Source of the DNA: Eubacteriales bacterium
Lineage (GTDB): Bacteria > Bacillota > Clostridia > Oscillospirales > CAG-272
Assembly: GCA_045643945.1 (NCBI GenBank)
Contig: JAZRGA010000066.1
Coordinates: 677 to 64,676 of the forward strand
DNA: 64,000 nucleotides
Direction of reading: 5' to 3'
Part shown: positions 2,965 through 62,970 of the stretch, in pieces
Position numbering within the stretch: the first letter of the stretch is position 1
How the letters are laid out: each line of letters begins with the position of its first letter
Translations under genes and position numbers: made by a program
Notes under the pieces: generated by a model
What the model was told of the DNA's origin: nothing
The model's database searches: none
The model's input: the letters and a program-made list of their open reading frames with translations, nothing else

Positions 2965-3243
2965 TTATCCGAGCCAACTGGAAACACCATTGATAAGAGC
3001 TTCCATAGCCTTGTTAAACGTCCAGTCAAGTCCACCGAGAGCAATTGCGCATACTGCAACAATCACCAAAACAACGCCTGTTCCCTTGAGAACCTGCTTC
3101 CAGCTGGGCCAAACTATCTTCTTAACGTCACTCTTGAAACCCTTCCACGCATCCTTTATCTTACCCTTCTTAGCCTTCTTAGCTTTTTCGGGCTTTGCTT
3201 CTTTGGTTTCGATTTCAGCGGATTTCTTTTCTTTTTCTGCCAT
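2965..3243 (-). CDS. secE: Preprotein translocase subunit SecE
   Basis: 92 aa with a Lys-rich N-terminus and a single C-terminal TM helix (GVVLVIVAVCAIALGGL). Located between rpmG and nusG. Confidence 0.85.
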   Translation of the reverse strand: MAEKEKKSAEIETKEAKPEKAKKAKKGKIKDAWKGFKSDVKKIVWPSWKQVLKGTGVVLVIVAVCAIALGGLDWTFNKAMEALINGVSSWLG

Positions 3244-3259
3244 CTTAACCCCTCCCGAA

Positions 3260-3421
3260 TTACTTAGATTCTTTATGAAGAGTGTGCTTGCGGCAGAACT
3301 TGCAATACTTGTTAAGCTCTAATCTGTCAGGATCGTTCTTCTTGTTCTTCTTTGTGTCGTAATTTCTCTGCTTGCACTCTGTGCATACCAAAGTAATCTT
3401 AACTCTCGCATCATTAGCCAT
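3260..3421 (-). CDS. rpmG: 50S ribosomal protein L33
   Basis: Not in the track (53 aa). Manual translation: [53 protein letters not shown]. It has the CxxC...CxxC L33 pattern and a GGAGG 10 nt upstream of the ATG. Confidence 0.9.
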
Positions 3422-3587
3422 TTTTGCGGCACCTCCATTTTCAAAATATTTGACCGAACACTTATCCGACGCATCAAAACGTGTTTAAAGCAACGGTCCG
3501 TGTACCTCCCTCACCGAGTGGCGTGCAGCAGTGCCTTTCGGCAATGGCGCTCTCTGTTGCACAACAAAAAAGCCTACCCGCAGAGGT
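3422..3587 (-). promoter_or_regulatory. Long structured 5' leader of the rpmG-secE-nusG operon (function unknown)
   Basis: About 165 nt separate the predicted TSS from the rpmG ATG. The region contains the stem GUGCAACAG...CUGCUGCAC (8 of 9 pairs) enclosing UGCC-GAAA-GGCA (GNRA loop). Confidence 0.35.
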
Positions 3588-3811: not shown

Positions 3812-4306
3812 TTACTCTGCATCAAGAGCCTCGAGATCCTCCTCGGATACCAAGCACTCAAACTTCTCGCCGCACGCGGGGCAAGCAAGCTCCTCGGGAT
3901 CGATGCTTCCGTCGAAGCAAATAGTTTCACCGCAGGAAGGACATTCAACCTCGAAATAGTCCTCATCCGCGAGAGCGCAATCACAATCGCAATCATCGCA
4001 ATCGCCATCGCATTCATCATCGTCCCAATCATCATAATCGTCATAATCATCGCAATCGCAGTCGCAATCACAGTCGCAGTCACAATCATCGTATACGATT
4101 TCCTCAACCGCACCGAGATCCTCGTCGATTTCCTCAATGTAATCACCGAGAGTATCAACGTCCTCCTCGAGCTCGTTGATAGCATCAGTCATTTCACCAA
4201 CAAGGTCAATAAGAGCAGCAATAAGCTTACCCTCCTTAGTGGTTTCGTCAAGATCAAGACCGTCTGCAAGACCCTGAATGTAAGCAGCCTTTTCGCTAAG
4301 TGTCAT
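3812..4306 (-). CDS. Highly acidic protein with a (Cys-Asp)n tract and a C-terminal zinc-ribbon-like CxxC...CxxC
   Basis: Track ORF of 164 aa. Contains DCDCDCDCDCDCDD...ECDGDCDDCDCDC, then ECPSCGETICFDG...LACPACGEKFEC. Good SD (AAGGAGGAACC) before the ATG. Confidence 0.8.
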   Translation of the reverse strand: MTLSEKAAYIQGLADGLDLDETTKEGKLIAALIDLVGEMTDAINELEEDVDTLGDYIEEIDEDLGAVEEIVYDDCDCDCDCDCDCDDYDDYDDWDDDECDGDCDDCDCDCALADEDYFEVECPSCGETICFDGSIDPEELACPACGEKFECLVSEEDLEALDAE

Positions 4307-4378
4307 AATAGGTTCCTCCTTATAATTACGCCTTAAATTACGTTTATTATAGCTTTATTGTACTCAATGATATTAAAA

Positions 4379-4936
4379 TTAAGCTCTGGAAAGATACTCG
4401 CCGGTTCTGGTATCTATCTTAAGAACCTCGCCCTCGTTAATGAAGAGCGGAACCTTAATAACCGCGCCGGTTTCAAGAGTTGCGGGCTTAAGAGTATTGG
4501 TTGCGGTGTTACCTGCAAAGCCGGGGTCGGTCTGAGTAACCGCAAGCTCAACGAACGTAGGAGGCTCTACGCCAAATACGTTGCCCTTATAAGAAATAAT
4601 CTTGCACATCATTTCTTCCTTTACAAACTTAAAGCTATCGGGAAGCTTGTCGCTGTTAAGAGGAAGCATATCGAAGGTTTCCATATCCATAAAGTAATAA
4701 AGGTCACCGTCGTTATAGGAATACTGCATTTCCCTTCTCTCAATATAAGCATTCTCGAATTTATCAGTGGGGCTGAAAGTTCTCTCGATTACAGCGCCAG
4801 TGATAACGTTTTTGATTTTGGTACGAACGAATGCAGCTCCCTTACCGGGCTTAACGTGCTGAAATTCAACAACCTGAAATACTGCGCCGTCCATATCGAA
4901 CGTAATACCGTTCTTAAAATCGCCTGCTACTACCAT
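4379..4936 (-). CDS. efp: Elongation factor P
   Basis: [17 protein letters not shown]...[16 protein letters not shown] (EF-P KPGKG loop). The ATG at 4936 is 9 nt after GGAGG. The track start at 4954 is a TTG that overlaps the SD. Confidence 0.93.
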
Positions 4937-17391: not shown

Positions 17392-18579
17392 CTACATACC
17401 GACAAATTCAATTCTGCGAAGCTTAGACCACTTTGCGGCTTGATAGAGCATACCGAGAGTACGGACCATCTGTTCCGTATTCTCTTTTTTTATGCTTTCT
17501 TTGTCGAGTCTTTTTAAAATGAGGTTTAATTTTAAATCACCCATAATGCTTCTCAAAAAAAGAATTTCATTTCTTTCTAAGGATAAAAAAAGCTCCGCAA
17601 GAATTTCAAAGCTCCGCTTCTTCTCCTCCTCATATTTTATACGAAGTCCCTCGTATCTATCGGGCGGTACAATCGTTCCAAATCCCATTTTTCCGTAAAA
17701 AGCGCTTAATCTGTCCTCTCGCTCATAGGAATATAGAAGATTTTCTTTTTTTATATAATCGTCAAACCGAAAAACAGAGCCATCGCGCACACTTGAAAAC
17801 AAACGGCAAAGGCTCGGCATAGATACGTCAAACTGAGGTATATCAAAGGCTATAAGCGCATCCTCAAGAGATGCGATAACGTCGCTTACGCAAATATCGG
17901 GCAACGGCTCAAGAGAACGCCCCTTTGCTCCCTCTCCTATTCTTGACTTTATTTGCCTATGCGTCGAGCCGCGATAAAAAAATCTACTTACTCCAAGCTC
18001 GCTAAACAAAACGCACTCTCCTCTGCGCACCTCAAAAATATCACTGTAAATGTCTGCCGCACCGTATACTCCGACAGGTGAGGTAAGATGCTCCGAAAGC
18101 ACCTCCTTATTGACCCTTACCGCCCTGCTCTCCTTATCGTCAATAGCAAGTATTCCCTTTGGCTCAGAGGAAAATAACACCTTTCCCGACTTCAATCTAT
18201 AAAAAAGAGGCTTTTTCCCGTTTTTATCCCTTGCAAGCAATAACATTCTTCGCTTTGAATCATACAAAGCAACTGCAAACGGAAGGGCAAGCATTCCCAA
18301 AAATTCAACTCCGTAAGTAAGATATGCTTCAATAGCCGCCTTACCGTCAAAAAAGGGAGCATCTATTGCTAAAACGGTATTATATCCGCTCCGCTCGGAA
18401 ATAATAGGCTGCTCACATTCAAAAATTCCGTCCGAATTATAAAACATCCCTACTCCGCTGTCAAAAAACTCCACGCTCGAATCTCGCCCTCTCAACGTCT
18501 GCGCATTTTTTATTGCATTAAGCTCCAAAAAGCCGACGTTACCGTTTCTAAAATCTACAACCCCACCTATTGCACTCAT
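17392..18579 (-). CDS. Asparagine-synthase-like protein (class II glutamine amidotransferase fold, degenerate)
   Basis: AsnB-like N-terminal domain (LLLARDKNGKKPLFY, FSSEPKGIL), but it starts MSAIGG instead of MCGI. No SGGxDS PP-loop is seen. Only 395 aa. Confidence 0.65.
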   Translation of the reverse strand: MSAIGGVVDFRNGNVGFLELNAIKNAQTLRGRDSSVEFFDSGVGMFYNSDGIFECEQPIISERSGYNTVLAIDAPFFDGKAAIEAYLTYGVEFLGMLALPFAVALYDSKRRMLLLARDKNGKKPLFYRLKSGKVLFSSEPKGILAIDDKESRAVRVNKEVLSEHLTSPVGVYGAADIYSDIFEVRRGECVLFSELGVSRFFYRGSTHRQIKSRIGEGAKGRSLEPLPDICVSDVIASLEDALIAFDIPQFDVSMPSLCRLFSSVRDGSVFRFDDYIKKENLLYSYEREDRLSAFYGKMGFGTIVPPDRYEGLRIKYEEEKKRSFEILAELFLSLERNEILFLRSIMGDLKLNLILKRLDKESIKKENTEQMVRTLGMLYQAAKWSKLRRIEFVGM

Positions 18580-18702
18580 AATAAATCCCCTATCGAAAAA
18601 TCATTTATACAATATATATTATGGCGCAAGCAAGAAAAAAATAAGTCACTTTTTAAAAAAACGCATATACTGTAATGAAACCCAATAAAGGAGGAGCTTT
18701 TT

Positions 18703-26166: not shown

Positions 26167-26457
26167 ATGGCTAAAAGATATTACTGGGAAATTCCCGAAA
26201 ACGAAACCGACCTTGAAACGGGTCTTGAAACGGGTAAAATTATTACGCACAAAATTCACCTTTCCTGTTCAAATCTTACGGGAAAAATAATTATTACCAT
26301 CGACGGCACTAAATTCGATATAAGCGAAAAGCCCTTTTCTCTCAAAAAGGTCGAGCAAATGTTCCGCCTCGGTGAGCTTCCCGCTCTTATTTCATTTAAG
26401 AGCAAGGGCGGACCTACAATAACGGCAGATAATACGGTATATAAGCCGAAATATTAA
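26167..26457 (+). CDS. Hypothetical protein, 96 aa
   Basis: ATG at 26167 preceded by ACGGAGGA. The track start at 26101 overlaps the end of the PHP gene and has no SD. Confidence 0.6.
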   Translation: MAKRYYWEIPENETDLETGLETGKIITHKIHLSCSNLTGKIIITIDGTKFDISEKPFSLKKVEQMFRLGELPALISFKSKGGPTITADNTVYKPKY

Positions 26458-26472
26458 TGAAATGATAAAAAA

Positions 26473-26832
26473 GAGCCGACATACGGCTGACCTGCTTTAT
26501 CGCAGGTCAGCCGAACGATGTTTGCCCTTGCGGGCAAGTGATGTCGGCTTCGCCTAATGATGTAGCCTTTGGCTGTGATGTTGTGCTTTCGGCACAATGG
26601 GCAAACATCACATCACTCGCGACCATCGGGAGCAACATCACTATGAGCAAGGCGAATAACATCACTTTTGCGTAAGCAAAAACATCATTCCTTTACCATC
26701 CGAAAAGAAAATATCGTATAACACACTATACCTTGCAATGCAAGGTGTAGTGCAAAAGGGACGAGAAAATCTCGTCCCTTTTAATAATATTGAAAAAAAC
26801 TGCTTTATCGCAGGTCGCCGTACAGTCAGCTC
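26473..26832. repeat. Composite intergenic element: a bounding long-range inverted repeat, a 4+4 mirrored 8-mer/mini-hairpin array and internal hairpins
   Basis: GAGCCGACATACGGCTGACCTGC (26473..) is imperfectly complementary to GCAGGTCGCCGTACAGTCAGCTC (..26832). The 17-mer CTGCTTTATCGCAGGTC occurs at 26492 and 26800. GTGATGTT-type motifs occur at 26517, 26538, 26556 and 26575. AACATCAC occurs at 26604, 26634, 26658 and 26681. Confidence 0.7.
26754..26782 (-). terminator. Rho-independent terminator of the DUF4349-like gene (bidirectional shape)
   Basis: Perfect stem GGGACGAG/CTCGTCCC with loop AAAAT, flanked by A4 and T4. Confidence 0.75.
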
Positions 26833-26841
26833 TTTATATTT

Positions 26842-27759
26842 TTATTGGATATTATCCTTTTTTTCGTTTTTCTTCTTTTTTCTCTTAATTGAAACACGGG
26901 CGATAACTACTACAACGACAACAACCGCGCCCCAGATAAGCGCAAAGGGTAATACGTAAATAGCGCCTATAAAAAGCTCCTTAAAGAACTCTGTCACCGA
27001 CTCAATACTTCCCTTAAAGGCATCCGCTACCTCGTCACCATAAGTCTTTTCGTCAAGCTCGGTATACTCAACCACCTCGCGTACCGAAAGCGTTACCGTT
27101 GAAAAAGCAACCTTAGCTTCAAGTGTTTTTAACTGCTCGTTATAAATATTAAGCTGAGTATCTATATCGGTAAGTTCGTCGTTTATCTTTTTCCAAGTGC
27201 TAAAATCGGTATTCACGTCTACGTTTTTAAGCATAGACAAAAGTCCCTCTCTTTTCGCCTCAAGCGTGCTTATGCGAGCCTGCAAGGTGAAATAGCTTTC
27301 ACTAACGTCCTCTGTTGCAGTTGACAAATTAATAATATTAAAAATATCGGAAAGACTCTCTAAAAAGGAATCAAAGCTCTCAGAGGGAATTTTTAAGGTA
27401 TATTTTGCGTTCTTCTCTGGCTTACCGTTTGAATTATAGCTTGCATTCTCGCTTGCGCTTGAATTGGATATATGACCGCCAAGACTCGTTATCAATGCCT
27501 TAAGCTGCTCGGTGGATTTTTCATATTCCTTTGTTTCTGCCGTAATAGTTGCGATTTTGATTATTTTTGAGCCGTCACCCGTACCGCTCGTCGTTATATC
27601 CGCAGGCTTCTCAACGATATCGGCGCCGCTCATTCCGATTTCCATTTTGTTGCTATAATCACTGTCGCTTGCAACGCCCTTAGAGCCGCAAGAAACGATT
27701 GACAATGCCAAAGCAGTTATCAAAAGCATAGCAACGATAACAATAAATCTCTTTTTCAT
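26842..27759 (-). CDS. DUF4349-like lipoprotein with a C-terminal TM anchor
   Basis: Lipobox LSIVSC, a coiled-coil middle (TLQARISTLEAKREGL), a C-terminal helix WGAVVVVVVVIARV and a Lys-rich tail. GGGAGG SD. Confidence 0.8.
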   Translation of the reverse strand: MKKRFIVIVAMLLITALALSIVSCGSKGVASDSDYSNKMEIGMSGADIVEKPADITTSGTGDGSKIIKIATITAETKEYEKSTEQLKALITSLGGHISNSSASENASYNSNGKPEKNAKYTLKIPSESFDSFLESLSDIFNIINLSTATEDVSESYFTLQARISTLEAKREGLLSMLKNVDVNTDFSTWKKINDELTDIDTQLNIYNEQLKTLEAKVAFSTVTLSVREVVEYTELDEKTYGDEVADAFKGSIESVTEFFKELFIGAIYVLPFALIWGAVVVVVVVIARVSIKRKKKKNEKKDNIQ

Positions 27760-27902: not shown

Positions 27903-27922
27903 AAAAAATTTTTATTTATTTT

Positions 27923-30900
27923 TTATCCAAGTGACAAGGACGGACGAGCTACTGCGAAATAGTATCCGTAGCCGAGAAGTCTTTCCATACGAACACTTGC
28001 CTCCAACGAATCATAATAGATACCGTTACCGATAATTGCGAACTGACCATCGCCCATGTAGATAAATATTACAGGGGACGAAAGTGTTCTACCGAGAATA
28101 ACGTCGCCTACTACGAAATTATCCTCAATCGGCAAGCGAGTTCTTCTACTATCTTGATGTGGCGTACTGAGCAAACGTCCTCCAAAGAGCGACGGAGCGA
28201 GCATATTGCGATACTTTCCGGATGCTCTTAAGGTATAAGGCTGTGCGCCCTCAGAAGTCAACTCAAGACCGCTTGAGGTGAATATGCCTTCACTTCCCTC
28301 GGTTACCGTCAAAAAGTCGGTGCTTGCAAAGATATTGTTAACGCCAAGCGCTCTCTTATAAATCTCATTTACAAGAGCCAAATCCTTTAAGGTTGTTCCC
28401 TCTGTGCGAATATCCTTTATTGCTTGAACTATTTTTGCCTGCTCAGCTGCCGTAAGCGTGCGACCTACATAAGTTGTATAGGTCTTAAACAATACTCCGC
28501 CGATAGTCGCCTTATCCGCCGTTATTGCCGCTCCGGATGTTGCCGTGGACTTAACCTTAACGGTATAAGAAACGTCGATGCTTTCGTTTGCGGGAACAGT
28601 TACGTTCCAAGAAAGATTGCTTCCGCTCACAGTCGCCGATCCCAAAACATATTCAACGTTAGTACCGATAACGTCTTTAATTGCGAGATTTACGTCATAA
28701 GAATTTGTATTATTAATACGGAATGTATAAACTATATCATCACCTTTATTTACAGTTACCGCATTAGGTACGCTTACAAGCTTTTCAGCTATTATACCCG
28801 AAAGATTGTTAACGCGGTTAAGACTGTTTTGAGGTATTGCGTAATTTGCCCATGTCGTATTGTTAAGAGGTCTTACAATAGTAAGGCTCGTTACTAAGTT
28901 AAATACGTATCCGCCTGTGTTTACAGGATTGAAGAAATAATCCTTTACTCTGTGGAAACGAATAGTCGGCTCTGCATTTTCATAGCCTACTCCTTCGGAG
29001 TTTGCATAGATGAAATTTGAACCGGTACTGTGGATTATCATTCCGTCGCCGATATAGAGTAATGCATGACCGCCCGATGTGCCGCGTCTGACTACGATTA
29101 TATCACCGGGTTGAAGCTTTGCCATAAACGCAGATTCAACGCTTGCCTTTTGAGCGTCGGTGTGAGTTTGCCCCTCTGTTCTTGTATAACTATACACATT
29201 CATATTGTTTTCGGCAGAATAATTGGTAAGATTGTAGGTTGTGTACATGCTTGAAGGAAGCTCCTTACCGTATACCGCCCAATACACGTCGTGAGTAAAT
29301 GCCGCGCAGTTAGTATATCCTAAGCTATCTCTTGTGTATTCCTCGGGAGTATTAAGTCCACATTCCCAACGGTATTCCTTACCCAAATTTGTCGGGTGAG
29401 CAAATGAGGTATCATCATACTGAAGCCATTCACCGCGGAGCAAATAATACTTAGCAGTTTCAACTATTACCCTTTGCTTTTCTGTAAGAGTATCGGGAGT
29501 TGCATCGGGATTTGACGGAGTAAATCCTTCCAATGAAAATGACGGACGGAATATAGCATAAGCCTCACTTTCGGTAAGCGTTGAGAGGAACTCATCGGTG
29601 TTAACCTCTCCGCGCTTTGTAGTAAGTGAACGAACACCTGTCGAGGAATAAATATATGTTCCCGTCAAGCCACCGTTAAGCTTTACTATAATATCGCCTA
29701 CTACAAGGTCATTCTTGCTAACGCTTGCAGCGGGTGCGCCCTTAACTCCCGAAATGCCTGCGGTTATATTCTTTCCACCGTAGAGTGTGGGAGCAATCAT
29801 ATTCTTTACTTCATTGGTCGCACTGCCGTCTATAAGAGAATTCATAATTTTAGGTCCGTTTATTCCCAAATTTGAGGAGATAACGGAGGTGTTTGTATAT
29901 GCCACGCCGTAAATCCACTTTGCAAGCTCAAGGTTGGAATAATTTGATGCATAAAGCGCATCGATAGCCATATCTATACACTTTGAGTCTACACTGTTAA
30001 GAGTTCTTCCAACGTAGAAGGCATTTGCGGTTGCCGTCTTCTTACCAACAGTTGCCGTGGTCGAGTTAATCTTAACTCCGCTCGTCAAGGATACGCTATC
30101 ATCAATCGTTACTGTATAGCTTACGCAAACGGTTTCACCCTTAGGAACAGATACAGACCAAAGAAGCGCATCGCCGTTGCGGAAGTCTGCACCCGTTACA
30201 TAGCGTGTGTTCTTCGGCACGGTATCCTCTGCGTAAACGTGAATACCCTTATTTGACAAGTTTTCAATGGTTATAAAATAAACAACGGTGTCGCCGCTGT
30301 TAACGGTCATCGCTTTAGGAACTGTGCAATACTTAGCAATTTTTACATTAGGCTCATAGGCATCTACGCCCGTGTCCTCGTCGCCTACCCACCAGTTTCC
30401 GTTCTCACCGATATACGGCGTTTCTCCAGGGTCGCCCTTATCGCCTTTGTCACCCTTTTCGCCTTGGATGCCCTGCTCACCTTGTTCACCCTTTTCACCT
30501 TGGATGCCCTGCTCACCTTGTTCACCCTTTTCACCTTGGATGCCCTGCTCACCTTGTTCACCCTTTTCGCCTTGGATGCCCTGCTCACCTTGTTCACCCT
30601 TTTCGCCTTGGATGCCTTGGTCGCGCTTGTCACCCTTTTCGCCTTGGATGCCCTGCTCGCCTTGTTCACCCTTTTCGCCTTGGATGCCTTGGTCGCCCTT
30701 ATCACCCTTTTCACCTTGGATGCCCTGCTCGCCTTGTTCACCCTTTTCGCCATTTGCCTTTACACCGGTATCAAGGTCACCTATCCACCAGTTTCCGTTA
30801 TCGCCTATATACGGTGTCTTGCCATCCTCACCCTTTTCGCCTTGCTCACCCTTTTCTCCTTGGATGACGCCTGAGTCTTGACAAGCCGACAACACCAAAA

Positions 30901-30973
30901 CGCTAACAAGCAAAAGAATTATCATTGTAATTACAAGCTTTATTCCTTTTCTACGTTTTGAAGCTCTCATCAT
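27923..30973 (-). CDS. Lipoprotein with collagen-like Gly-X-Y repeats, DUF11/CARDB-like repeats and an NlpC/P60-like papain-fold domain
   Basis: Lipobox [18 protein letters not shown] repeats bracketed by TPYIG(D/E)NGNWW(I/V)GD motifs. [17 protein letters not shown] and [17 protein letters not shown] repeat domains. Candidate catalytic Cys in GYTNCAAF and His in [18 protein letters not shown]. Confidence 0.85.
30422..30859 (-). repeat. Tandem 36-nt (12-codon) collagen-like coding repeats
   Basis: Near-identical units of ...GGATGCCCTGCTCACCTTGTTCACCCTTTTCACCTT... are visible on the plus strand. They encode aa 39-51 and 75-184 of the 1016-aa protein. Confidence 0.9.
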
Positions 30974-60854: not shown

Positions 60855-61223
60855 TTACTTTTTTCTACTTTTCTTAACGTCTCTTTCTATAATGTATCGC
60901 AGTATATCTGTATCAAAATCTTGAAAAACAAATGGTTTAATCATTGATTTGGCTAATTTGGGATGTTTCGAATAATTTCTTATCGAATAAATTGATAGTG
61001 TTGGATATAAGAATGAGGCAAGAAAACACAATCCGGAAACAATAAACATCATTATTCTTGCGGCATATTCTGTTTTTTCATATAATAAAGCGAACAATAA
61101 AAAGAAAACGAAAAAAATGAAGAATAGTATAGAAGCAAAAGCTAAAGAAAACTTTACATAGTTGATATACTCTTTTTTTATATTCCCATTGAATATATCT
61201 TTTTTCATATCAAACACCTCCAT
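60855..61223 (-). CDS. Small membrane protein, 122 aa (two TM helices)
   Basis: Hydrophobic segments FSLAFASILFFIFFVFFLLFALLY and IMMFIVSGLCFLASFLY. GGAGGTG SD. AT-rich codon usage. Confidence 0.7.
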   Translation of the reverse strand: MEVFDMKKDIFNGNIKKEYINYVKFSLAFASILFFIFFVFFLLFALLYEKTEYAARIMMFIVSGLCFLASFLYPTLSIYSIRNYSKHPKLAKSMIKPFVFQDFDTDILRYIIERDVKKSRKK

Positions 61224-61230
61224 TCATCAA

Positions 61231-61290
61231 ATTCAAGTTTATCTATTAGTTGTATTATACCATAAAAACGGTGAAAAGTAAATAGGACGG
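61231..61290 (-). promoter_or_regulatory. Duplicated 60-bp promoter segment, copy 1 (drives 60855..61223)
   Basis: Identical to 62502..62561. Minus strand reads TTTACT, 17 nt ending in TGG, TATAAT (-10 at 61259..61254). Confidence 0.6.
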
Positions 61291-61378: not shown

Positions 61379-61561
61379 GATTATCTCTTCGAGTTTTGAG
61401 AGTACCGTTTTATATCGTGAATATCGTAAAATATCGTGTGATATCGTGCATTTATCGTTTGATATCGTGAATATCGTGAGTATCGTCGCATAAAGTGTTG
61501 CACCAAATTTGCACCAAAATTACACCAGCATTCAACGCTGTTCTGCTCGACAAATTGGAAT
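61379..61561 (-). repeat. 3' cassette module, copy B (eight phased TATCGT units plus TTGCACCAAA repeats)
   Basis: TATCGT starts at 61413, 61422, 61432, 61442, 61453, 61463, 61472 and 61481 (spacing 9-11 bp). Then AAGTGTTGCACCAAATTTGCACCAAAATTACACCAGC. Abuts the stop codon at 61562. Confidence 0.9.
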
Positions 61562-62482
61562 TTACTGAACATTAGAGATAAGTTGTTCACTGCAGTATGG
61601 ATATGTCCAATTGTTTTGCTTTTTAAACTCTAAAACATCTTCCGCATTACATATAAAACCGTTGTATGATTCATTGGAATACATAACCATTACACCTTTT
61701 TCTTTATCATAGTTGCCGTCTTTATCGGTAATAACCCAAAGAGTTATGCTGTAAGAAGTGTATTCATCTGTCTTTTTCCAATCAGGATTATCGTGGTGTT
61801 GATGAACTCCGTATATTTCATGTAATATTTTCCCATCCGCATCCACTTGAAGAATACTATTATATCTGTGCGGAAAAGTATCCGGATTTGCCAAATTTAA
61901 TGTTTTAGAATAGTCATTTAATATTTTGTTACATTCGACCGAACTGAGGGAATATGTGTTCTTTCCCAAAGCTTTATAATCTGTGATTGGATAAGAAATA
62001 CATTTACTTTTATCTATCGGTTTATTCCAATCATTTTCTTCTTTTAACTTATCCTTGTTTTGCAAGTAGAATTCTTCTGTTTTATTCTTTAGATGATCCT
62101 CTTTAAATCCCTCATATAAGTGTTCAGACTCTATAAAGGTCAATTCATAATTCATTTCGGGATAAAAATATACGTTGCTGTCATCACAAGTTTGAGAAAT
62201 GATTAAGCAAAAAACTTGATCGCTATAATCTTCGCAATAAGAAAATAGTGTTCTGCCGTAATCATCCTGTTCCCAAATATAAATAACCGAGTCGTATGCT
62301 CCCTCACCATGATACATATATCCTTCGGCATCAGGAATGCTATAAATTGCGGTGGTATATAGTTCTTTATATTCTCCACGATACGGAAAAGGATTTTCTC
62401 TATTGAACACACATCCGGATAGCCCCAATGAACAAGTAAATAAAATAATGCTACATAACACTAAGGATAATACTTTTTTCAT
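61562..62482 (-). CDS. Hypothetical lipoprotein, 306 aa
   Basis: Signal and lipobox MKKVLSLVLCSIILFTCSLGLSGC. AAGGAGGGA SD. AT-rich codon usage. Confidence 0.8.
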   Translation of the reverse strand: MKKVLSLVLCSIILFTCSLGLSGCVFNRENPFPYRGEYKELYTTAIYSIPDAEGYMYHGEGAYDSVIYIWEQDDYGRTLFSYCEDYSDQVFCLIISQTCDDSNVYFYPEMNYELTFIESEHLYEGFKEDHLKNKTEEFYLQNKDKLKEENDWNKPIDKSKCISYPITDYKALGKNTYSLSSVECNKILNDYSKTLNLANPDTFPHRYNSILQVDADGKILHEIYGVHQHHDNPDWKKTDEYTSYSITLWVITDKDGNYDKEKGVMVMYSNESYNGFICNAEDVLEFKKQNNWTYPYCSEQLISNVQ

Positions 62483-62501
62483 TTAAATCCCTCCTTGTAA
62501 T

Positions 62502-62561
62502 ATTCAAGTTTATCTATTAGTTGTATTATACCATAAAAACGGTGAAAAGTAAATAGGACGG
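62502..62561 (-). promoter_or_regulatory. Duplicated 60-bp promoter segment, copy 2 (drives 61562..62482)
   Basis: 60 of 60 identical to 61231..61290. The -10 TATAAT is at 62530..62525 on the minus strand. Confidence 0.6.
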
Positions 62562-62570
62562 CGGAAGAAA

Positions 62571-62735
62571 ATGAATTGACGGCAAGCCGTCATGAATTGA
62601 AGCCTTGCGGCTTCATGATTTGAAATCTGCGATTTCATGAATTGAATTGCCCTGTTTCTCTAATGCCGCAGGCAATTCATGCACTGTTGTGCAATTCATG
62701 GCGTCAGCCAATTCATGCCCGCAAGGGCAATTCAT
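62571..62735. repeat. Mirror-symmetric mini-hairpin array: 4 x ATGAATTG then 4 x CAATTCAT
   Basis: Forward 8-mers at 62571, 62592, 62615 (ATGATTTG) and 62637. Reverse-complement 8-mers at 62673, 62692, 62709 and 62728. Every spacer is a distinct short hairpin. Confidence 0.85.
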
Positions 62736-62753
62736 TGTTCTCCAAGAGATAAC

Positions 62754-62809: not shown

Positions 62810-62970
62810 TTATCTCTTTGAGTTTTAACAACGCCGTTTGATATCGTGAATATCGTGTAATATCGTGTGATATCGTGCATTTATCGTGTGTTTTCGTGCG
62901 ATATCGTGAATATCGTGAGTATCGTTTGATAAAGTGTTGCACCAAATTTGCACCAACTCACACCAACATA
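62808..62970 (-). repeat. 3' cassette module, copy C (nine phased TATCGT units plus TTGCACCAA repeats)
   Basis: TATCGT (one TTTCGT) starts at 62842, 62851, 62861, 62871, 62882, 62892, 62902, 62911 and 62920. Then AAGTGTTGCACCAAATTTGCACCAACTCACACCAAC. Abuts the stop codon at 62971. Confidence 0.9.

Follow-up and report, generated by a model that had tools for sequence, protein, structure and literature searches.

A strain-variable non-coding insertion with a mirrored Gut-1-like array inside a host terminator of an Oscillospirales bacterium

The sequence analyzed here, referred to as the window, comprises 64,000 nucleotides of contig JAZRGA010000066.1 from a Eubacteriales bacterium of the CAG-272 lineage (assembly GCA_045643945.1), and our subject is a non-coding element that lies in it between the convergent 3' ends of a 96-aa open reading frame (ORF) and a DUF4349 gene (Table 1). 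The surroundings are ordinary chromosome, with PriA, RsmB, RlmN, RsgA and a PASTA kinase encoded in the window. Look-ups of the window DUF4349 protein and of a 306-aa protein returned no exact match, and a DUF4349 query of genome contigs gave, among the matches listed, matches at 25-28% identity only. A preliminary description of this site, made from the letters of the DNA, had reported four copies of an 8-mer followed by four copies of its reverse complement, separated by small hairpins. The 8-mer positions, the spacer hairpins and the location between convergent 3' ends were all confirmed. Within the window AACATCA occurs six times, four of them in the array (26604, 26634, 26658 and 26681), and TGATGT occurs eight times, three of them in the array (26539, 26558 and 26576), with GATGTT at 26517. 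The spaced pattern AACATCAC-N10-30-AACATCAC-N10-30-AACATCA is unique to the array in the window and lies far beyond chance, as evidenced by its absence from 100 of 100 dinucleotide-preserving shuffles (0/100).

Table 1. Coordinates of the element, its parts, its flanking features and the second array (window numbering)
Feature	Position	Strand	Basis or remark
ORF of 96 aa, function unassigned	26167..26457	+	left neighbor, convergent
Left arm of the host's bidirectional terminator stem, GAGCCGAC and A, with an A-run before it	26473..26481		intact hairpin at empty sites
TA, left copy of the duplicated target dinucleotide	26482..26483		filled versus empty comparison
Inserted non-coding element, 337 bp	26484..26820		absent in L006, present in L003, L007 and L008
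Left end: terminal inverted repeat (TIR) CGGCTGACCTGC, 6-nt loop TTTATC, inverted TIR copy, together a perfect 12-bp hairpin	26484..26513		repeat search
Gut-1-like unit: linkers cGATGTT, GTGATGTc, aTGATGTa and GTGATGTT with three hairpins between	26513..26586	+	RF01706, 34.6 bits
Central hairpin GTGC-TTTCG-GCAC between both units	26583..26595		loop base T in the window, C in L003, L007 and L008
Second Gut-1-like unit, more decayed than the first; + strand reading: three copies of AACATCAC and one of AACATCAT	26601..26690	-	weak RF01706 match at 26630-26690, 14.3 bits
Near-perfect 14-bp palindrome CACTATACCTTGCA-A-TGCAAGGTGTAGTG	26724..26752		repeat search, 93% complementary; invariant in four copies
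The element's own bidirectional intrinsic terminator AAAAGGGACGAGA-AAA-TCTCGTCCCTTTT	26754..26782		13 bp, 100% complementary, A and T runs flanking
Right end: mini-hairpin CTGC-TTTATC-GCAG, which overlaps the TIR of this side, GCAGGTCGCCG (26810-26820)	26800..26820		11/12 TIR match
TA, right copy of the duplicated target dinucleotide	26821..26822		filled versus empty comparison
Right half of the host terminator stem, a + GTCAGCTC, then a T-rich run	26824..26832		intact hairpin in L006
DUF4349 gene	26842..27759	-	right neighbor, convergent
Array 2, same architecture, linker ATGAATTG / CAATTCAT	62571..62737	-	upstream of the promoter of ORF 61562..62482(-)

The window was compared with contigs that encode DUF4349 orthologues (loci L003-L009, L011, L012, L134/135, L137 and L139/140). 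One of these, L006, has 98% DUF4349 identity and the same gene order, and it holds the site empty: its intergenic sequence, aaaaaaaGAGCCGACATACAGTCAGCTCttttt, is a single ordinary bidirectional terminator, with the site itself reading GAGCCGACA-TA-CAGTCAGCTC. The two loci are collinear on both sides, and what L006 lacks is exactly the stretch from 26484 or 26485 to 26820, the BLAST segments meeting at 26484 and 26821 with an overlap of 3 nt. The filled site reads GACA-TA-[CGGC...GCCG]-TA-CAGTC against GACA-TA-CAGTC in L006, a junction placement that is ambiguous by 3 nt (TAC). An empty site facing a target-site duplication, the comparison that the preliminary description had proposed, is thereby provided, with a single TA in L006 and TA on both sides of the element in the window. 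The element is carried at 97-98% identity by L003, L007 and L008 (97-98% DUF4349 identity), and a single short terminator without the element stands in L004 (92% DUF4349 identity), L005 (72%), L134/135 (66%), L137 (73%) and L139/140 (55%); all seven of the seven outgroup loci are empty. These comparisons show that the element is an insertion, polymorphic between strains, and such clean presence and absence bears out the earlier suggestion of a family of mobile non-coding elements. The coding capacity of the 337 bp amounts to a spurious 52-aa ORF and a 73-aa ORF.

Since the empty site of L006 contains an intact terminator, the outer inverted repeat of the filled site is the host terminator stem split by the insertion. 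The 23-nt long-range repeat is in fact composite, with an outer 8 bp (GAGCCGAC/GTCAGCTC) that belongs to the host stem and an inner 11-12 bp (CGGCTGACCTGC/GCAGGTCGCCG) that is the TIR, whose two copies agree at 11 of 12 positions. The view of a 360-bp element closed by a long-range inverted repeat is replaced by that of an insertion at 26484-26820, the closing repeat being mostly split host terminator. One might also propose that nothing moved at all, and that the array grew locally from the terminator by palindrome or fold-back amplification, or is ancestral and was precisely deleted elsewhere. Such an origin would fit an array that is a large quasi-palindrome centered near a hairpin, and the loop flips and rearrangements at the left hairpin, described below, mark a recombinogenic region. 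It is at odds with an empty site that is a clean single TA in an intact terminator, with the uniformly empty outgroup loci, with an insertion that is not centered on the array, and with the presence of an L147-type family (L147, BAAZ01000095, BAAZ01000187, BAAZ01000322) at different loci with different flanks; we regard a non-mobile origin as highly improbable.

The 12-bp left hairpin, which the preliminary description had noted, was recovered by our repeat search, as were the other hairpins. Its 6-nt loop (26496-26501) is TTTATC in the window and GATAAA or GATAGA in L003, L007 and L008. Owing to the other loop orientation, the TIR extends to ~21-22 bp in L003, L007 and L008. The loop orientation thus flips between strains, which makes the direct repeat of a 17-mer in the window a loop-flip product: the 17-mer CTGCTTTATCGCAGGTC does occur solely at 26492 and 26800 in the 64 kb, as had been reported, and its direct orientation is a strain-specific by-product that is inverted in L003, L007 and L008. 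We considered this 17-mer as the att-type core of a site-specific recombinase and rejected it, the empty site being without the 17-mer. The right mini-hairpin shows a compensatory pair, CTGC/GCAG becoming CTAC/GTAG in L007 and L008. As an observation in its own right, the sequence to the left of the flipped 6-nt loop differs in every contig, which marks either a hot spot for loop flips and rearrangements or a series of assembly joins.

The internal terminator at 26754-26782 came from the repeat search and was missing from the list of a simple terminator scanner. For the palindrome at 26724-26752, just before this terminator, a protein-binding site or a very small RNA is conceivable. A weak promoter-like sequence, TTTACC-19-TATAAC, precedes the palindrome, with a hairpin and a terminator behind it (~26692-26786); its spacing is poor and the copies show no variation, and we make no small-RNA claim for it. 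The 339-nt stretch 26485-26823 has a predicted fold of -135.6 kcal/mol on the plus strand and -142.4 on the minus strand (z = -9.1 and -9.5), so that the fold prediction proposed earlier for both strands returns z of about -9 on each. The prediction has the 8-mers of the left half paired, in nested order, with those of the right half, and the small hairpins branching off.

Two of the right-half spacers of the array are decayed, in agreement with the earlier impression that this half is the more degraded. When eight arrays, from the window and from the related loci described below, are taken together, 42 of 45 spacers contain a perfect stem of at least 3 bp and 35 of 45 one of at least 4 bp, compared with 11% of shuffled spacers. 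Between L009 and L011 the ~200-nt array differs by four substitutions, two of which pair with each other in one stem (CTTCGC/GCGAAG to CTTTGC/GCAAAG); compensatory changes in palindromes can also come from template switching in replication. The loops of the 5' unit are pyrimidine-rich (TTC, TTT, TGAC, TTGC) and those of the 3' unit are their purine-rich complements (GAA, GCA, GTA, AAA, GTAA, GCAA), which makes both strands look alike. About half of the loops in the eight arrays are 3-nt loops closed by C-G. Loops of this kind are typical of stable DNA mini-hairpins, more than of RNA, and we therefore treat the RNA nature of the array as unproven. In several arrays the first linker and the 5' arm of the first hairpin recur inverted at the center, giving an alternative stem that would close one unit; the inverse pair is GATGTTTGCCC (26517-27) with GGGCAAACATC (26599-609) in the window and ATTATATTCGCC with GGCGAATATAAT in L147. 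On such periodic half-array sequences MAFFT slips by one repeat unit.

The linkers are uniform within an array and different between arrays, with GTGATGTT and ATGAATTG in the window genome and GTGATATT, GTGAAATT, GTGAAGTT and TCGATATG elsewhere. Deviant linker copies are uncompensated at the mirrored positions, and for this reason we rejected the idea that the 8-mers are constrained by long-range pairing alone. We also rejected an origin of the 8-mers as target-site duplications left by a series of tiny hairpin insertions, because the empty sites contain no matching 8-mer and the inverted half would go unexplained. By eye, none of the DnaA boxes, CRP half-sites, Chi or the MazF site UACAU fits the linkers, and the C/D-box RUGAUGA and the omega-repressor heptads WATCACW fit only some of them.

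The architecture is not new; the published Gut-1 RNA motif (RF01706) already covers half of it. Gut-1 was described in 2010 from 43 human-gut sequences and was rated as certainly RNA by covariation, with no function given (PMC2864571), and in the library searched we found no later literature naming Gut-1 with "RNA motif", or RF01706. Its consensus, CAaUGAAAU[hairpin]GUGAAAU[hairpin]GUGAAAU[hairpin]GUGAAAU with the first hairpin gcCcUUGCgGgc, equals one array half. We searched with relaxed thresholds (the RF01706 gathering cut-off is 50 bits), and the model matched 26513-26586 on the plus strand with 34.6 bits (E = 2e-5), below the cut-off and over model positions 1-77 of 77. This full-length alignment accommodates all three hairpins and all four linkers, with the variant linker GUGAUGU in place of GUGAAAU. 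The conserved first hairpin of Gut-1, ucgcCcUUGCgGgcga, has the window version UUGCCCUUGCGGGCAA, in which TTGCCC-TTGC-GGGCAA agrees with the family consensus, and it is also the first spacer of array 2 and of the Gut-1 locus L145. The 14-nt hairpin TGCCCTTGCGGGCA (26523) is indeed the exact reverse complement of 62716-62729 in array 2; the identity stands, and where the preliminary description saw units shared between two arrays it is better read as the conserved first Gut-1 hairpin. The linkers of the published alignment are GUGAAAU and GUGAUAU, with GUGAUAUU linkers in some members, and neither GUGAUGUU nor AACAUCAC occurs in it. Its unannotated 3' flanks contain AAUAUCAC 31 times and AAUUUCAC seven times, which corresponds to the mirrored half.

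The likeness between the window array and Gut-1 extends to four ~8-nt GUGA-type linkers, three short GC-rich hairpins between them, the conserved first hairpin, an origin in gut-type Clostridia and an intergenic position, often after a terminator; the difference lies in the bit score relative to the cut-off and in the GUGAUGU linker. By sequence and alignment to the model, the window array belongs to the Gut-1 sequence/structure family, as a divergent double module. Gut-1 as published is one half of it, and the text of PMC2864571 describes neither the mirrored second unit nor the element boundaries nor the presence/absence polymorphism. Two Gut-1 seeds in the supplement of that paper, BAAY01013587 and BAAZ01023714, are of the GUGAAAU type with the mirrored hairpin half absent; ~230 nt downstream both contain a contiguous AAUUUUCC AUUUUCA AUUUUCA ACUUUCA AUUUCCC, approximately the linker's reverse complement and free of hairpin spacers.

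A metagenome scan with GTGAWRTT repeated three times matched at least 120 loci, and among the matches listed five are genuine mirrored arrays. RF01706 scores above its cut-off in L147 (75.2 bits), L211 (73.4), L205 (62.0 and 59.4, for two tandem arrays) and L145 (53.3). L147 and L211 each have a second, weaker match on the opposite strand, and the two-strand match pattern of the window is also found in L009. The mirrored second unit is present in L147, L211, L205 and L145, and a closing stem in the first three of these. The window element, L009 and L147 have a common layout, consisting of TIR hairpin, double array, spacer, bidirectional terminator and other TIR. L009, L011 and L012, from another species (67% DUF4349 identity), contain a GTGATATT array at the same intergenic site, and in L009 the perfect 15-nt terminator arms AAAACAGCCGACCGC / GCGGTCGGCTGTTTT are parted by a 372-nt insert that holds this array. 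L147 presents a perfect 12-nt arm pair, AAAAATCCGGGC / GCCCGGATTTTT, parted by 337 nt, and the Gut-1 seeds BAAZ01000095 and BAAZ01000187 contain the L147-type element in other terminators that are apparently split, as judged by eye and without empty sites. In L211, L205b, BAAZ01025322 and BAAV01002358 the array begins 2-3 bases behind a terminator, in three cases with tRNA or 5S genes upstream. Gut-1 arrays elsewhere are thus shown to have the same mirrored layout, the same element organization and the same location in or right after terminator hairpins. The two arrays of L205 (~4243-4626) and the one of L211 (438-935) lie directly behind the terminators of tRNA or 5S rRNA clusters. The tandem copies of L205 have a 151-bp core in common, 94% identical and with unrelated flanks, and their homology reaches as far as the outer 8-mer at one end and 5 nt past it at the other; L205a and L205b differ by no change in seven linkers and by seven changes elsewhere.

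The covariation of 43 sequences that earned Gut-1 its rating (PMC2864571) raises the possibility that the array is primarily a structured RNA that serves the host, either a non-coding RNA or a 3' untranslated region reached by read-through from the 96-aa gene, acting for example as a protein-binding RNA or as a stabilizer against exonucleases, with mobility incidental. GNRA and UUCG-like loops are present, in favor of such an RNA. In the window, moreover, the 96-aa stop codon is followed by the array without a terminator, the first on the plus strand being that at 26754-26782, and from these terminator positions the array should be co-transcribed; the L009 array is likewise open to read-through, from the DUF4349 side. 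However, no convincing promoter was found before any array, and a terminator stands directly before the array in L147, L211, BAAZ01025322 and BAAV01002358. The element is also dispensable, near-identical strains existing without it, the equivalent units on both strands define no sense strand, and the 3-nt C-G-closed loops that make up about half of the total are more DNA-like. We consider a primary role as host RNA unlikely.

The reading that we favor, and hold to be probable, is that the element resembles a MITE (a miniature transposable element with inverted repeats) that was moved in trans and landed at a TA in the terminator loop, carrying a divergent double Gut-1 module. The TIRs and the TA duplication suggest an IS630/Tc1-like cut-and-paste enzyme, and the element would be moved by a transposase encoded elsewhere in the genome. 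Insertion would have occurred at the TA inside the loop of the terminator common to the 96-aa gene and the DUF4349 gene. The element's own terminator at 26754-26782 would then end both convergent transcripts, replacing the split host terminator, and the transcript of the 96-aa gene would pass through the array before terminating. The array itself may act in cis as a single-stranded fold, of RNA or of single-stranded DNA, with the small hairpins formed, and in this fold the eight linkers would either pair left with right or be recognized by a single sequence-specific factor. MITEs of the IS630/Tc1-mariner type belong to a TA-duplicating family, and the window element resembles them in its size of less than 400 bp, its lack of an ORF, its TIRs flanked by duplicated TA and its variability between strains. 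It differs from them in that no cognate transposase was found in the window or near the arrays and TA is seen at one insertion only, and its large internal array and internal terminator are atypical. In L003, L007 and L008 the element and the DUF4349 flank are attached to three other left flanks, two of which resemble an A-run plus GC-stem terminator half and one of which ends in TA. Whether these are real rearrangements or assembly joins over a repeat, three different left flanks imply further copies, and we infer a multi-copy state of the element.

Several points weigh against a MITE-like origin. The TA duplication is proven at one insertion and plausible in L009; the L147 family and the junctions of L003 and L007 show no evident duplication. 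The alternative left flanks of L003, L007 and L008 are on metagenome contigs and may be assembly chimeras across the repeat, several copies being implied regardless. The 64-kb window contains no second copy of the TIR or of the 17-mer, and Pfam and NCBIfam searches of neighboring proteins revealed no transposase in the window or beside any array. Array 2 and the L205 tandem copies are without such TIRs, which implies that the array core may move or duplicate by a different route. Finally, a mobile element does not account for linkers that are identical within each array and yet differ between arrays. Apart from these points, the element gave no BLAST match to plasmids and phages, and across the neighbors of five arrays Pfam and NCBIfam revealed no common or mobility-related protein, the neighborhoods encoding DUF4349, the 96-aa protein, a PHP-domain protein, an ABC transporter and housekeeping genes.

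The 3-nt ambiguity at the junction also admits a single-stranded DNA route, in which an HUH/Y1 enzyme would insert the element 3' of ...ATAC with no target duplication, as for PATEs derived from IS200/IS605 or REPINs mobilized by RAYTs, with the subterminal hairpins and the units of linker plus hairpin as recognition sites. Insertion 3' of ATAC with a right end ...GTAC fits the TAC ambiguity as well as a TA duplication does. Related hairpins stand at both ends, and in the window they are on the same strand and in direct orientation, giving the 17-mer. The targets are hairpin loops, which would be single-stranded when extruded, loops of the C-GNA-G type are present, and the mirrored doublet resembles a REPIN. 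This route is contradicted by the loop orientation in L003, L007 and L008, which makes the ends inverted, not direct, and by the L007 and L003 junctions, which do not follow TAC. The hairpin at the right end is no longer than 4 bp, a Y1 transposase gene was not seen, and repetitive extragenic palindrome (REP) families hold one sequence genome-wide, whereas here the linkers differ between arrays of one genome. We give this route a slim chance.

Alternatively, the 8-mers could be double-stranded DNA sites for a sequence-specific protein, arranged in two inverted sets like iterons, a partition centromere, an operator array or subterminal transposase-binding repeats, with the hairpin spacers secondary. 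This would explain why linkers are the same within an array and differ between arrays, which long-range pairing alone does not require, and why linkers changed less than spacers between the paralogues L205a and L205b. The spacing of 17-30 bp is compatible with it, the terminal hairpin and the other end of L009 hold the 8-mer-like GTGATAcT, aGTATCAC and cTGATgTT, array 2 and the L001 array lie just upstream of promoters or genes, and the L147 array is flanked by terminators that would keep transcription away from a DNA-protein complex. Two-set arrays of 7-8-bp motifs are found in the phage P4 ori/crr octamers, the SaPI ori and the heptads of the ribbon-helix-helix (RHH) protein omega of pSM19035, a lead only. 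Like the window array, these iteron and RHH arrays combine direct and inverted short motifs, and their motif differs between related elements to match protein specificity; unlike it, they adjoin the gene that encodes their binding protein and lack hairpin spacers. The neighbor searches found no Rep, Par or repressor gene adjacent to the arrays and no candidate binding protein linked to any array, the neighbors being housekeeping genes. Two linker types in one genome would demand two proteins, the GC-rich hairpin spacers kept by compensatory changes (35 of 45) would be left unexplained, and the window array does not lie at the element termini, being 132 bp from the right end. We find such sites, as the primary function, distinctly doubtful.

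A more far-reaching version of the MITE-like reading is that the double Gut-1 array itself confers mobility, as the module of a so far undescribed class of non-autonomous elements of gut Clostridia. These would home to terminator hairpins, entering the loop or the position right behind the T-run, would come with a bidirectional terminator of their own, and would use the array-specific 8-mers as a changeable address that is read by a matching trans-acting factor or by self-pairing. We put this forward as a speculation that is unlikely to hold. If true, the orphan Gut-1 motif would gain a function in DNA mobility and not in host RNA. With the broader reading, our results suggest that published Gut-1 is half of a mirrored module carried by an insertion that varies between strains, has inverted ends and brings a terminator along. 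In Oscillospiraceae-like bacteria such insertions would recur in or beside terminator hairpins, both of tRNA operons and of housekeeping genes, and the orphan motif becomes a question of mobile DNA: what moves it, how terminators are found and what reads the 8-mer. In practice, these elements produce intergenic length polymorphisms in gut metagenome-assembled genomes and are likely break points in metagenome assembly, and the current Rfam model misses them when the linker differs.

Small mobile repeats of other bacteria offer partial parallels. The pneumococcal BOX, SPRITE and RUP elements have been reviewed as such (PMC10969869). In common with the window element, they are small, non-coding and intergenic elements of Firmicutes that form stable stem-loops and insert into one another; BOX and SPRITE are further alike in their modular repeats, with boxB occurring several times between boxA and boxC, and in a terminator-like module (SPRITE). 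They have no sequence relation to the window element, which is built of units of 8-mer plus mini-hairpin in two inverted sets, with an array-specific linker and a terminator loop as its target. The REP, BIME and REPIN families of Proteobacteria, associated with RAYT, likewise consist of clustered small extragenic hairpins with conserved linkers, form inverted doublets that fold into a larger hairpin, and lie between convergent genes, at 3' ends. REP hairpins, however, are conserved genome-wide, whereas here conservation is confined to the linkers of an array and the hairpins vary; neither a RAYT gene nor a GTAG-type tetranucleotide was seen here, and the taxon is another.

The second array of the window is also missing where it might be expected. 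It is absent in L367 and L368, upstream of a 99%-identical orthologue of ORF 61562..62482, and a paralogous promoter copy in the window (61224-61290) is without an array; together these absences imply that array 2 is a variable insertion as well. The leader of array 2 (AAGAGATAA...terminator...TTATCTCTTGGAGAACA) and its first hairpin share homology with those of L145, a bona fide Gut-1 locus. RF01706 gives no match to array 2 at E <= 10, which indicates that the family is wider than the Rfam model. Near array 2 are two copies of an iteron-like array (61412-61490 and 62841-62925) with a period of ~10 bp, each consisting of eight to nine ATATCGTG units and then three GCACCAAA units. Each copy lies upstream, in the minus-strand sense, of a duplicated leader/promoter module (61224-61290, similar to 62493-62560) driving ORFs 60855..61223(-) and 61562..62482(-). 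At the orthologous locus, L367, no more than three CACGATAT units are present.

Further repeats were encountered outside the window. Two scans of viral contigs with the array patterns, each with at least 120 matches, showed no mirrored hairpin architecture among the matches listed. The metagenome locus L150 (~3221-3560, minus strand) contains GTGATATT and GTGATGTT repeats with 15-17-nt non-hairpin spacers, and AACATCAC copies beyond them; its likeness to the array is superficial, and it appears to be a repeat of another kind. L001, from Clostridiales bacterium UBA1248, holds a mirrored array at 18440-18625 with the linker CATATCGA / TCGATATG, between a terminator and the gene of an ECF-type sigma factor, and its linker resembles the ATATCGTG iterons of the window. 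Close to the DUF4349 gene, a 1016-aa ORF with collagen repeats and an NlpC/P60 domain (27923-30973, minus strand) forms a second strain-variable segment: the near-identical L003, L006, L007 and L008 are without it, window position 27920 being joined directly to 31098.

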